Source: a bacterium (GTDB lineage Bacteria > Patescibacteriota > Minisyncoccia > Phycocordibacterales > UBA918). From it: a stretch of DNA of 38,689 nucleotides. The translations under genes were made by a program, and so were the position numbers. Numbering within the stretch: the stretch's first letter is position 1; the number at the start of each line of letters is the position of its first letter. Positions 8,333-11,094 of this stretch are shown here, in pieces. The notes below the pieces were generated by a model that saw nothing but the letters and a program-made list of their open reading frames with translations, was not told the DNA's origin and did not search any database. Location: assembly GCA_002710785.1 (NCBI GenBank), contig PAMC01000011.1:32264-70952 (forward strand), written 5' to 3'.

Positions 8333-9151
8333 TTATGTCTCAACTTCTTCTAAAAGATTGATCGAAACATGATGGTTAAAAACATCATCTATCTCAATCA
8401 GATAAACATGACCACGGTGCAGACTTGCTTTTAGTTCTGGTGATACTGTCGTTTTGATGATTTTACCTTCGTGCTCACCGGAACAAGCCTCAAAACAGAC
8501 TTCAAATTCTTTTTTCAAAAGCTCCCATGCGTATACTCGCATTTCAGCAATGTCTCCAGCTTTAACATCAGAATATATGACCTCCTCTCCATCATATAGA
8601 CGCCTAATAACACGACGGTTTTTTGCCCGGTACTCTTTTTTATTATAGTTTCTTGATTTTTTACCAACCTTAGATAATTTATCGGCTACTTTGTTTTCTT
8701 TACGGCGTTTAAAATCAACACTAACTTGCCCTCCTACAGCTTTTGCTAGTTTAAGGCGTGTTTTATCAATTTTATCCAACAGGTCAGCATCTTTGATATC
8801 TTTGCCTTCGTAGTTTTTCCATTTGTTTTTTCTCCAGCCCTGAATTTTATATGGATTGATTAGCTCTCCATCTGTCACACTGTGTCTGTCGGTGTATATT
8901 TCAACACCTGAAGCTTGTCTTACGATGTCGGGGTTTGCTTTTGCGTATTCAAGCAGACCTTCCATTGCATGAATAATGCTAATCATTTCTAGTCGGTGTA
9001 TACCTCTACCGTCACTTCTATAAAAGTACTGAATTGGTTCAGCATCGATACTGTCAGGAAAAGTTATTTCATAACCACCACCCCCAGTCTGTTGAGGATC
9101 GTAGTCCATTGCTCCGTCACAGTGTATTTGTATCGCATGTGGGTTGTTCAT
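8333..9151 (-). CDS. RNase HI-like protein with an unassigned C-terminal extension of about 105 aa (272 aa)
   Basis: RNase HI catalytic pattern read in the translation: HCDGA (D12), RLEMISI (E55), IYTDRHS (D88), ENKVADKLSK (D157). There is also a basic-protrusion-like GWRKNKWKNYEGKDIKDADL, comparable to E. coli RnhA [17 protein letters not shown]. Residues from about 170 to 272 have no recognised motif. Confidence 0.7.
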   Translation of the reverse strand: MNNPHAIQIHCDGAMDYDPQQTGGGGYEITFPDSIDAEPIQYFYRSDGRGIHRLEMISIIHAMEGLLEYAKANPDIVRQASGVEIYTDRHSVTDGELINPYKIQGWRKNKWKNYEGKDIKDADLLDKIDKTRLKLAKAVGGQVSVDFKRRKENKVADKLSKVGKKSRNYNKKEYRAKNRRVIRRLYDGEEVIYSDVKAGDIAEMRVYAWELLKKEFEVCFEACSGEHEGKIIKTTVSPELKASLHRGHVYLIEIDDVFNHHVSINLLEEVET

Positions 9152-9209
9152 TTAACTACAATACTTCGATGAAAACACAAAGCAAGTTAACTTTTTATTG
9201 CAATCTGGA

Positions 9210-9233
9210 GGACAACTATTAGGAAAGTTGTCC
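9210..9233. promoter_or_regulatory. operator-like inverted repeat in the divergent control region
   Basis: GGACAACT, 8-nt spacer, AGTTGTCC (perfect) in the 143-bp gap between the divergent genes 8333..9151 and 9295..11094. Confidence 0.4.
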
Positions 9234-9294
9234 CACTATATGTATAGCTAGACATGACAATATTATTATTGTACGTTTCTAGTACGACAGAATC

Positions 9295-11094
9295 ATGGCG
9301 CAGGAAAATCAATTACCAATATATAGGGTTAACAAAGAACACGAAAAACTGCATCAGGCTACGACTTTTGACCAGGTTGTTAACTTAGTGATGCGAAATG
9401 AGCAAGAAAGATTAGAAAGAACTCCTATATCAAAACGTCAAGAAGGAGATGCCTATGTAGAAAAGACCTTGAACGATGACTTAGAATTAAGTGGATATTC
9501 AGTACGCGTATTTCATAAAGCGAGAGTAAACCCAAATCCATGGAATGGTTTCTTTCAGGACGTTGTACAAGATTTGCGTCAGCTTAAAAATGAAAGCCAT
9601 GACTTCATTGTTTTTATTTCAGATGAGCAGTCCGAAAATCAAAACATATACTGTTTTACTGGTGGCTCAGCATTTCATGTGATTTCTGATTTTGCTGACG
9701 AAGATTTTCCAATACAACTTCTGGTTAGATTTATTGACCCAGAAAAAATAAAAACTGCACGAAGCAGAATGTTGACTGGTTCATTTTATGCTAGGAGCAA
9801 TTTTTTTAGAGGTGCACACAGCATATCAGTAGCAGATGCATTTGGTGCGATATGGAAAGACGTGACGGCAACATTAAAAGATGAAGTACGTGCGGACCCA
9901 GATTTTTCATATTTATTTGAGAGTAAACGCGATTTAAACTGTGAAGCAAAGTCTTCTTTTAAACTAAAGAAAAGGGTTGGATTTGAACAAGGTCTTACAC
10001 TCATTAGCAAGCTTGAAACAATTCTTTCCAGAGAATTGACAGCAGATGAGTCAATGGTTCTGGACTTGTTTGAAACTTTTCAAATCATAAAATCAAAACC
10101 AAAAAAAGACGAAGTTAAAGAACGTATTTTGTCCTTAGCTCTATCCTATATAAATGATGAGACTAGCGAATTTGATTTTGATGTTTGCAATGTTGAATAT
10201 GAAAAATACTTTGAGGCTGAAAAATATGTAGTTGCATACAAACAGCATCGTTTTGAGTTCACGTCACATCCTAGCGGTAAAGACATCTTGGACGAACTAA
10301 AAAATTTGGAAGAAAGTCCAACTTCAACTCAAGAATTAGCAAACATTAAAATCAATACAGAAAGTAGTTTGGGTGAATGGCATACAACAAAGGGAACTTT
10401 ATATGACCATCTACATGGTGAAGTTGAATTAAATAATAACGAAAAGTATTTCTTAATTGATAAGAACTTGTACAAGGCCAAAGCTGATTTTCTTGAAAAA
10501 ATGAACCTCAATTTTATTAGTCGATTAAATACGGATGACTTGTTGTTGCACACAGATAACTCTTCCCAATTTATAGATTGGGGGAATATATCTGAAGGAG
10601 AATACAATGAGCTGTACCTACAACAACCTTCATTTGTTGTTGCAGACAGAGTGACTCTAAAAGGCATTGAAGTTTTTGATCTATTGTATTTTGGTCAAGA
10701 CAATAAAATCTATATAGTACAAGTTAAAAATGGACTAGGTTCCTCTACCAGAGATGCTTGCTCACAAATTAGGAACTCAGCAGATGTGATTGAAAACGCG
10801 ATTAATGATGGTCAGACAGAAAAACTTAGAGAGCTATATAGATTGCTTTCACGTACAACAAAGGTTTCATACCATGCAGATCTGCAAAGAATCATGAGAA
10901 CCTTCACTGAAGATGAATTTGTAAACTTGTTTAGAAACAACGAAAGGATTTACCTACTTCTATTTAAGTACCAAGCAAACAACGCTGATTTATCTAGGCT
11001 CGCTTCAAATATTGCCAAGTTTGAAATTTTAAGCACAGCTGATTACATGAGAATGCATAATGCTGATTTCAAAATGCTAAATATTGCCAGCTAA
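9295..11094 (+). CDS. 599-aa protein of unknown function with a PD-(D/E)xK-like C-terminal motif; possibly TIGR04141/DUF6119-like
   Basis: C-terminal EVFDLLYFGQDNKIYIVQVKNGLGSSTRDACSQIRNSADVIENA fits a D-x15-QxK nuclease-like core. The N-terminal IYCFTGGSAFHVISDF..DFPIQLL pattern and overall length match my recollection of the sporadically distributed TIGR04141 family. This is not verified by an HMM. Confidence 0.65.
   Translation: MAQENQLPIYRVNKEHEKLHQATTFDQVVNLVMRNEQERLERTPISKRQEGDAYVEKTLNDDLELSGYSVRVFHKARVNPNPWNGFFQDVVQDLRQLKNESHDFIVFISDEQSENQNIYCFTGGSAFHVISDFADEDFPIQLLVRFIDPEKIKTARSRMLTGSFYARSNFFRGAHSISVADAFGAIWKDVTATLKDEVRADPDFSYLFESKRDLNCEAKSSFKLKKRVGFEQGLTLISKLETILSRELTADESMVLDLFETFQIIKSKPKKDEVKERILSLALSYINDETSEFDFDVCNVEYEKYFEAEKYVVAYKQHRFEFTSHPSGKDILDELKNLEESPTSTQELANIKINTESSLGEWHTTKGTLYDHLHGEVELNNNEKYFLIDKNLYKAKADFLEKMNLNFISRLNTDDLLLHTDNSSQFIDWGNISEGEYNELYLQQPSFVVADRVTLKGIEVFDLLYFGQDNKIYIVQVKNGLGSSTRDACSQIRNSADVIENAINDGQTEKLRELYRLLSRTTKVSYHADLQRIMRTFTEDEFVNLFRNNERIYLLLFKYQANNADLSRLASNIAKFEILSTADYMRMHNADFKMLNIAS

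Follow-up and report, generated by a model that had tools for sequence, protein, structure and literature searches.

An RNase HI-like gene and a divergent DUF6119/TIGR04141 gene as probable independent passengers of a serine-recombinase island in a patescibacterial genome

Two genes that are transcribed away from each other on a mobile island raise the question of whether they work together. We considered this question for a stretch of 38,689 nucleotides (nt) from a bacterium of the phylum Patescibacteriota (assembly GCA_002710785.1, contig PAMC01000011.1, positions 32,264 to 70,952 of the forward strand). The whole stretch is called the window below. An integrative island within it carries an open reading frame (ORF) for an RNase HI-like protein of 272 amino acids (aa) and, in the opposite direction, an ORF for a protein of 599 aa. 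An initial annotation, made from the letters of the sequence, proposed that the pair may be a two-component module for surveillance of RNA:DNA hybrids. As a plainer alternative it named a stand-alone defence or exclusion gene next to an RNase H that serves the element. Both ORFs, the 143-bp spacer and a perfect inverted repeat with 8-nt arms and an 8-nt loop (8-N8-8) are present as it described them:

8333..9151, minus strand: RNase HI-like ORF, 272 aa (PF00075, PHROG 531, fold, mapping of the DEDD residues)
9152..9294, no strand: divergent intergenic region, 143 bp, holding the inverted repeat at 9210..9233
9295..11094, plus strand: divergent DUF6119/TIGR04141 protein, 599 aa (homologues with PF19614)

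However tidy a divergent gene pair with a palindrome may look on a mobile island, it speaks for a system only if the same pairing is found again elsewhere. The loci of RNase H homologues comprised 38 loci from GTDB species genomes (with flanks of up to 10 kb), five loci from exact-protein look-ups and one IMG/VR contig. The loci of DUF6119 homologues comprised 16 from metagenomes and 13 from look-ups. Hidden Markov models of both families were compared at permissive thresholds with every ORF of at least 50 aa. The partner gene was found in none of about 40 RNase H loci and in none of the 24 other DUF6119 loci (about 15 of them with flanks of at least 5 kb), i.e., only the window holds both genes and the pairing does not recur. 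In particular, no RNase H gene is near the two DUF6119 homologues that are closest to the window protein (60% and 53% identity). As homologues of the two genes do not co-localise in these loci, a two-gene system is unsupported. The initial annotation had itself listed such a lack of co-localisation as an outcome that would speak against the surveillance module; of its two proposals, the plainer one fits the data best. We regard the two genes as independent, individually mobile passengers of a serine-recombinase island and put the probability of this reading, taken as a whole, at about 0.6.

The first step is to place the 599-aa protein. A homology search returned 24 full-length relatives, with 100% query coverage against proteins of 594–633 aa. 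Their source names are “TIGR04141 family sporadically distributed protein” or “DUF6119 family protein”. A precomputed PF19614 (DUF6119) match is recorded for 23 of the 24, including the 99%-identical P0001 (PF19614.5); P0013 has none on record. Direct scans of the window protein against Pfam, NCBIfam, PADLOC and PHROGs gave nothing, and it has no match to the local models PF19614.4 and TIGR04141.1 even at E ≤ 10, in which it differs from typical DUF6119 members. The relatives P0005, P0021 and P0024 (identities of 37%, 31% and 26%) score 77–83 bits with PF19614 and 64–74 bits with TIGR04141, above the cut-offs of 27 and 35 bits, respectively. The homology search connects them to the window protein with E-values of 1e-119 for P0005 and 1e-40 to 1e-52 for P0024 and P0021. 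Membership therefore follows by transitive homology. By this chain of similarity the 599-aa protein is a divergent member of DUF6119/TIGR04141; together with the two relatives closest to it, it forms a divergent branch of the family. The resemblance to this family that the initial annotation pointed out has thus been confirmed by way of the relatives.

A profile search of 1.84 billion representatives gave 1358 clusters (50% identity), of which 501 have E ≤ 1e-30. The family is nearly always a lone protein of 570–635 aa that is matched end to end. The window protein shares with it the full-length homology (E from 1e-119 to 1e-40), the length of about 600 aa, the lone-protein architecture and the same invariant motifs. 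The AlphaFold model of the window protein has a predicted local distance difference test score (pLDDT) of 84 and a predicted template-modelling score of 0.82. The family is already catalogued, without a described function: the literature searched on DUF6119, TIGR04141 and PF19614 holds incidental mentions only and no functional statement. What is new is the divergent member in the window.

The next step is to ask what the C-terminus of this protein could do. The initial annotation read there a motif D-x15-QVK and considered it compatible with a PD-(D/E)xK-type nuclease. The motif is conserved in 23 homologues, with a spacing of 13 residues instead of 15: it is D462-x13-Q476-V-K478, followed by GLGSSTRDACSQIRNSADV. 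The relevant features are:

10582..11091, plus strand: C-terminal region with a PD-(D/E)xK-like core, residues 430–599 (conservation, predicted secondary structure)
10678..10680, plus strand: D462, at the start of strand beta2
10720..10728, plus strand: Q476-V-K478, in strand beta3

Residues D451, E459, D462, K478, R486, S490, Q491 and E500 are invariant in the alignment of 23 sequences, and E434, Q476 and V477 are nearly invariant. The predicted secondary structure consists of a helix (residues 434–439), three strands (447–449, 463–465 and 471–479), a second helix (485–505) and a further strand (550–558). E434 is predicted to lie in helix alpha1, while helix alpha2 would carry R486, D487, S490, Q491 and E500. 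In the predicted structure this alpha-beta-beta-beta-alpha-beta order is typical of a PD-(D/E)xK core and the conserved residues appear in canonical places. The predicted core order and the conserved D462 and K478 agree with the compatibility noted by the initial annotation, although the middle residue is Q instead of D or E; we consider the C-terminal domain likely to be a PD-(D/E)xK nuclease. There are also invariant clusters in the N-terminal part (D103, T122-G-G124, D135, R158, R172 and W187) and in the middle domain (D296-x-C298, H374-G-E376 and D389). Their conservation suggests additional functional sites.

The third step is to look at the genes around DUF6119, in particular at genes of restriction-modification (R-M) systems and other defence systems. 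Of the two closest homologues, one is beside an N6_N4 methyltransferase gene on a serine-recombinase island and the other is beside a type I R-M system (hsdR/M/S). P0021 is encoded within a type I R-M operon, with hsdS/DUF4145 on one side and hsdR on the other; AAA_21/RloB is part of the same operon. In another setting the gene adjoins a DncV-like cyclic oligonucleotide-based anti-phage signalling system (CBASS); the serine-recombinase island that holds them also encodes an N6_N4 methyltransferase and an S24 repressor. Elsewhere a single gene separates it from a type II CBASS (SMODS-ThiF-JAB-SAVED) upstream of it, or it lies in the vicinity of a ThsB_TIR (Thoeris-type TIR) gene, and in this last case a HigB-like toxin gene is found about 3 kb downstream. 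In one context the DUF6119 gene adjoins two serine recombinases, and it is adjacent to a recombinase in L047, L073 and the window. Among 25 loci, N6_N4 methyltransferases are neighbours in six and serine recombinases in five; clustering of the neighbours revealed no conserved one. R-M, CBASS, TIR or toxin genes occur within 10 kb in about nine of the 11 annotated independent contexts, the window included. Queries with the window protein and P0024 found no DUF6119 protein in phage records, PLSDB plasmids or IMG/VR contigs. Such a pattern would be expected of an immunity cargo gene that is host- or island-borne and uncatalogued. A role of the window protein as a defence nuclease is plausible on these comparative grounds.

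Several variations of gene architecture were observed within the family. Proteins of about 1400 aa at three loci (L059 7507..11868, L060 8003..12301 and L062 97..4296) have a distant version of the DUF6119 C-terminal motif region fused to a C-terminal UCH peptidase domain (PF00443, ubiquitin carboxyl-terminal hydrolase). The motif part and the UCH part are adjacent separate genes in L056 (1206..2840 and 2954..4831) and in L057. In one sub-branch a DUF5677 gene of about 255 aa follows immediately downstream of DUF6119 at two loci (L070 11809..12570 and L072 11806..12573). Homologous ORFs of 348–361 aa flank DUF6119 genes as well: an upstream ORF of 348 aa in L054 and L064, and ORFs at 11816..12901 in L001 and 8938..9996 in L072. 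The DUF5677 genes and the 348–361 aa ORFs are possible sub-family partners, and neither has a counterpart beside the window copy.

Taking these observations together, we infer that the DUF6119 protein is a single-protein, stand-alone effector of defence or exclusion. Its N-terminal and middle domains would sense or bind the target and control the C-terminal nuclease. The putative PD-(D/E)xK-type active site (E434, D462, Q476-x-K478 and acidic residues of the helix) would then cut invading or host DNA. Shedu and HamA are PD-(D/E)xK defence proteins; the Shedu nuclease is C-terminal, behind variable N-terminal regions, and both proteins are found in defence islands and mobile elements. The mode of action proposed here, with a nuclease domain and sensor regions, would resemble that of Shedu-type single-protein nucleases (SduA, DUF4263) and of Hachiman HamA (DUF1837). 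In contrast to these, the window protein and five DUF6119 relatives match no PADLOC model, those for Shedu and Hachiman included, and the N-terminal and middle domains are unrelated to theirs. DUF6119 is thus not a member of Shedu or Hachiman but a possible functional analogue.

A second comparison is with PrrC and RloC, which are “restriction-linked” latent anticodon nucleases, coupled to an ATPase and embedded in type I R-M operons. The likeness consists in the position of P0021 within a type I R-M operon and of another homologue next to hsdR/M/S. DUF6119 proteins do not belong to the PrrC family, but those encoded in such operons may provide a back-up linked to restriction, much as PrrC does. 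The differences are that no ATPase-family match is recorded for the scanned DUF6119 proteins and that the window copy is outside a type I R-M operon.

A tentative extension of this proposal concerns the whole family. DUF6119/TIGR04141 might be an unrecognised single-gene anti-phage or anti-plasmid family, in which a novel N-terminal sensor gates a QxK variant of the PD-(D/E)xK nuclease. Type I R-M operons, and serine-recombinase islands in their cargo slots, might have taken it up, with a UCH-type cysteine peptidase fusion in one distant branch. If DUF6119 is an immune nuclease, about 1,400 clusters at 50% identity would join the defence repertoire. A function would also be given to a long-standing orphan family annotated as “sporadically distributed”, whose members extend to little-studied hosts such as Patescibacteria.

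As to the 272-aa protein, it is a true RNase H of type 1. It matches PF00075 with 29.7 bits (cut-off 25.8) and PHROG 531 “Rnase H”. An hhalign comparison with E. coli RnhA (probability 95.7) places D12, E55, D88 and D157 on D10, E48, D70 and D134. It also aligns the basic protrusion WRKNKWKNYEGKDIKDADLLDKID with its E. coli counterpart and reveals a deletion of the loop that carries H124 in E. coli. All four catalytic carboxylates are invariant across an alignment of 32 family sequences, so that the catalytic pattern and the protrusion reported by the initial annotation are both real. The AlphaFold model (pLDDT 93) matches E. coli RNase HI in Foldseek with a probability of 1.00, E of 3e-9 and a template-modelling score of about 0.75 for the target. 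The further residues that had been noted as carrying no recognised motif are an extra domain of about 100 aa, which is conserved among the homologues:

8642..9151, minus strand: RNase H domain, residues ~1–170 (PF00075, fold)
8336..8629, minus strand: family-specific C-terminal beta-barrel, ~95 aa, residues ~175–272 (homologue conservation, model)

In the model, residues ~179–270 are predicted to be a separate domain with the strand order beta-beta-beta-alpha-beta-beta, which is OB-like. The OB assignment is unconfirmed, as searches of the PDB with barrel profiles and a Pfam consensus scan gave noise only. G188, E217 and E221 of the barrel are invariant among the 32 sequences, and R246, Y250 and H261 are nearly so. 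We found 92 homologues, nearly all of 260–290 aa and a few truncated. A profile of the barrel alone recovers just truncated copies of the same family and no other architectures; therefore the domain is family-specific.

The RNase H family was found at 38 loci by a pattern-seeded scan of one genome per species in 185,579 GTDB species. Its phyla are Patescibacteria, Bacteroidota, Desulfobacterota, Ignavibacteria, KSB1 and others. With the NF001236 equivalog model of RNase HI the window protein scores 34.7 bits, and the cut-off of 160 bits is not reached. Because the gene is rare, island-borne, far below the equivalog cut-off and extended by an extra domain, it is an accessory gene and not the housekeeping RNase HI. 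It has the fold, the DEDD residues and the basic protrusion in common with E. coli RNase HI and the phage RNase H proteins of PHROG 531. Unlike RnhA (about 150 aa), it has the additional barrel of ~95 aa, lacks the H124 loop and is encoded on an island. On a small scale, this RNase HI-plus-barrel family shows cleanly how integrative elements have adapted a housekeeping fold.

The neighbours of the RNase H gene were tabulated for 41 loci: serine recombinases in six, tyrosine integrases in seven, insertion sequence transposases in two, RadC in five, HsdM in four, and PrimPol/AAA_25 in four. A recombinase lies within the fetched flanks in at least 15 of the 41 loci, and clustering of the neighbours showed no conserved one. 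The 272-aa protein has no match at E ≤ 1 in PADLOC-DB v2.0 (2023) and none among phage or PLSDB plasmid records; IMG/VR gave one RNase H contig. In these neighbourhoods the gene behaves like part of the backbone, or like an accessory, of integrative elements. The enzyme looks active, and we infer that it works for the element, independently of the DUF6119 protein. It would remove RNA from RNA:DNA hybrids (primers or R-loops) during replication or establishment of the element, and the barrel, given its OB-like strand order, may bind nucleic acid.

A number of points weigh against the reading of two independent passengers with these roles. Comparative data alone leave room for functional coupling that may exist in this one element. 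The association with defence islands comes from about 11 annotated contexts, for which there is no background rate, and two of these (L063 and L071) are not clearly defence-related. Neither the 599-aa protein nor five DUF6119 relatives match PADLOC-DB v2.0 (2023) at E ≤ 1; no PADLOC model matches the family, and therefore it has no experimental precedent. The suggestion of the initial annotation that the RNase H serves replication by the PrimPol protein is weakly supported, as PrimPol/AAA_25 is nearby in the four loci mentioned above only. The nuclease assignment has its own difficulties. Glutamine (Q476) occupies the second acidic position of (D/E)xK. A Foldseek search with the whole model gave no match at E ≤ 0.001 in the PDB or BFVD. 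The non-significant nuclease matches were CdiA-CT 4g6u (probability 0.63), the cap-snatching endonuclease 6qvv and a phage exonuclease (0.41), with further weak matches to the C-terminal domain of HamA (0.13) and pithovirus endonucleases. Profiles of the whole family and of the C-terminal domain retrieved only noise from PDB sequences (Abraxas, Shiga toxin B and HSP90 at E > 0.02, across the DUF6119 and RNase H searches). The Pfam consensus scan of the C-terminal domain was likewise noise; TnsA_N and NERD each appeared once, weakly (E > 0.1). In known PD-(D/E)xK variants, acidic residues of the helix that comes next can substitute, and by analogy D/E487 and E500 could stand in for the missing acidic residue.

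In one alternative the DUF6119 protein serves the element itself, as a maintenance or addiction toxin, as a DNA-processing factor of excision or replication, or as a DNA-binding protein whose conserved acidic and lysine residues are non-catalytic. The gene is frequent on serine-recombinase islands (L047, L073 and the window), the PD-(D/E)xK fold is unconfirmed, and there is the glutamine in the position of the catalytic triad. The N-terminal part moreover bears a weak resemblance to RdgC DNA-binding proteins in BFVD (probability 0.82), but this candidate was rejected, since hhalign against E. coli RdgC gives a probability of 0.3. The gene also keeps no constant position relative to recombinases or to the att ends. 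It lies inside one chromosomal type I R-M operon and beside another, with no recombinase called in the annotated flanks of either, and its neighbours are mostly immune genes. We therefore find service to the element unlikely, and prefer a stand-alone defence or exclusion effector.

Another alternative concerns the RNase H-plus-barrel protein. It could be an anti-defence enzyme, which destroys guide RNA:target R-loops or the products of reverse transcriptases, or a stand-alone defence gene. The gene is solitary and sporadic across phyla, in variable islands with RadC, HsdM and helix-turn-helix regulators, and the low number of loci with PrimPol/AAA_25 counts here in favour, as does a family-specific C-terminal domain with the invariant and nearly invariant residues listed above. 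However, the family has neither a PADLOC match nor a conserved partner, and no known immune neighbour pattern. RNase H genes of phages and mobile elements, as in PHROG 531, are commonplace replication accessories. The same backbone of recombinase, AAA_25 protein and methyltransferase is present in two elements, that of the window and L011 (see below). An offensive or defensive role of this enzyme thus seems rather improbable to us, and a function for the element itself is preferred.

The 143-bp spacer remains to be considered. Its perfect inverted repeat is GGACAACT-N8-AGTTGTCC at 9210..9233. An inverted repeat with 8-nt arms and a loop of 0–12 nt occurs in about 5% of shuffled 143-bp spacers. 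Ten matches of this kind are present in the 12-kb island; several are nested, and the number of distinct sites is about seven. The repeat at 9210..9233 was not found in any of 73 homologue loci, and what lies upstream of the genes in L001 and L003, the closest DUF6119 homologues, bears no relation to the window spacer. By its sequence the repeat is a candidate operator, whose improbability by chance is weak, and the spacer with the repeat would at most serve regulation locally, in this one element. A surveillance module that couples hybrid processing to a nuclease effector, with both genes co-regulated via the repeat, is very improbable: the divergent layout, the perfect repeat in the shared spacer and the presence of two nucleic-acid enzymes (or candidates) on a mobile island with an R-M pair are consistent with it, but the genes do not co-localise in about 40 RNase H loci and 24 other DUF6119 loci, the closest DUF6119 homologues lack an RNase H neighbour, L011 lacks DUF6119, and the repeat is unconserved and has a chance expectation of about 5%.

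Another short sequence is repeated around the pair. The octamer TGTCCCAC occurs four times in the window (6482, 7322, 8300 on the minus strand, and 9229), with 0.98 occurrences expected; three of 100 shuffles reach four. The four copies are confined to 2.8 kb around the island's left end. One of them overlaps the right arm of the palindrome at 9210..9233, and another belongs to a second, imperfect inverted repeat at 8297..8332, between the p221 gene described below and the RNase H gene. The octamer may be a protein-binding site of the element. At the other end of the pair, the 3' end of the DUF6119 gene shares 18 bp (11077..11094) with that of the serine recombinase gene, which runs towards it. 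No terminator-like site was found between these two genes; the nearest one, at 11206..11231, is within the recombinase gene.

The remaining question is what kind of element carries the two genes. The initial annotation placed them in a mobile island next to an R-M pair, and this setting was recovered as a low-GC insert (low guanine plus cytosine) in comM with the following features:

7316..19365, no strand: low-GC integrative island, ~12 kb, inserted in comM/yifB (GC profile, Pfam matches)
6707..7315, minus strand: C-terminal fragment of comM/yifB (Mg_chelatase profile positions 112–205)
7574..8239, minus strand: p221, an ORF of 221 aa with two CxxC pairs and a helix-turn-helix-like stretch
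11077..12855, minus strand: large serine recombinase (Pfam)
13105..14883, minus strand: PrimPol-PriCT-AAA_25 protein (Pfam)
17423..18247, plus strand: ORF of 274 aa (no Pfam or PHROGs match)
18249..19346, minus strand: C5 DNA methyltransferase (Pfam)
19366..20337, minus strand: N-terminal fragment of comM/yifB (Mg_chelatase profile positions 2–116)

The GC content is 34–46% between ~7.3 and 19.4 kb and about 56% outside. The two comM fragments jointly cover the full profile, and therefore the island is an insertion into comM. The fragment at 6707..7315 aligns to residues ~310–509, and that at 19366..20337 to residues 1–315, of the intact ComM in L005. The insertion was probably made by the large serine recombinase encoded at 11077..12855. 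Several further ORFs of the island have no family match in Pfam or PHROGs. The backbone of a Nomurabacteria element (L011) is akin to that of the window: it has a serine recombinase, an AAA_25 protein, an RNase H (58% identity) and a C5 methyltransferase, and no DUF6119 gene.

A related arrangement was observed in a Candidatus Pacebacteria metagenome-assembled genome (L005 4121..10429, and L006). There an RNase-H-barrel homologue with 61% identity is the last gene of an island of ~3.4 kb, which is preceded by an intact comM and followed by a Mg_chelatase remnant of 63 aa and a LysM-Peptidase_M23 gene. ComM and the LysM-M23 protein of the window are 50–54% identical to those of the Pacebacteria genome, and such matches of the flanking genes point to a probable host of the Patescibacteria type. 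The same chromosomal neighbourhood in both suggests that comM is a recurrent hot spot for these elements.

Three minor observations concern the rest of the island and its border. First, p221 has no family match; sequences like its N-terminal part are found behind the RNase H gene of the IMG/VR contig (L075 3018..3450), directly upstream of a serine recombinase in L012 (11955..12155) and near a DUF6119 gene in L052 (12338..12856); p221 is a candidate regulator of the element or a candidate recombination directionality factor. Second, the 274-aa ORF and the gene of the C5 cytosine methyltransferase converge, and their ends are 2 nt apart. Since such an abutting arrangement is the usual layout of a type II R-M pair, this ORF is a candidate novel restriction endonuclease. 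Third, a palindrome with 23-nt arms, 96% complementary and without a loop, lies at 20392..20437, just upstream of the start of the comM N-terminal fragment, and it is the longest inverted repeat in the scanned region 6400..20500.

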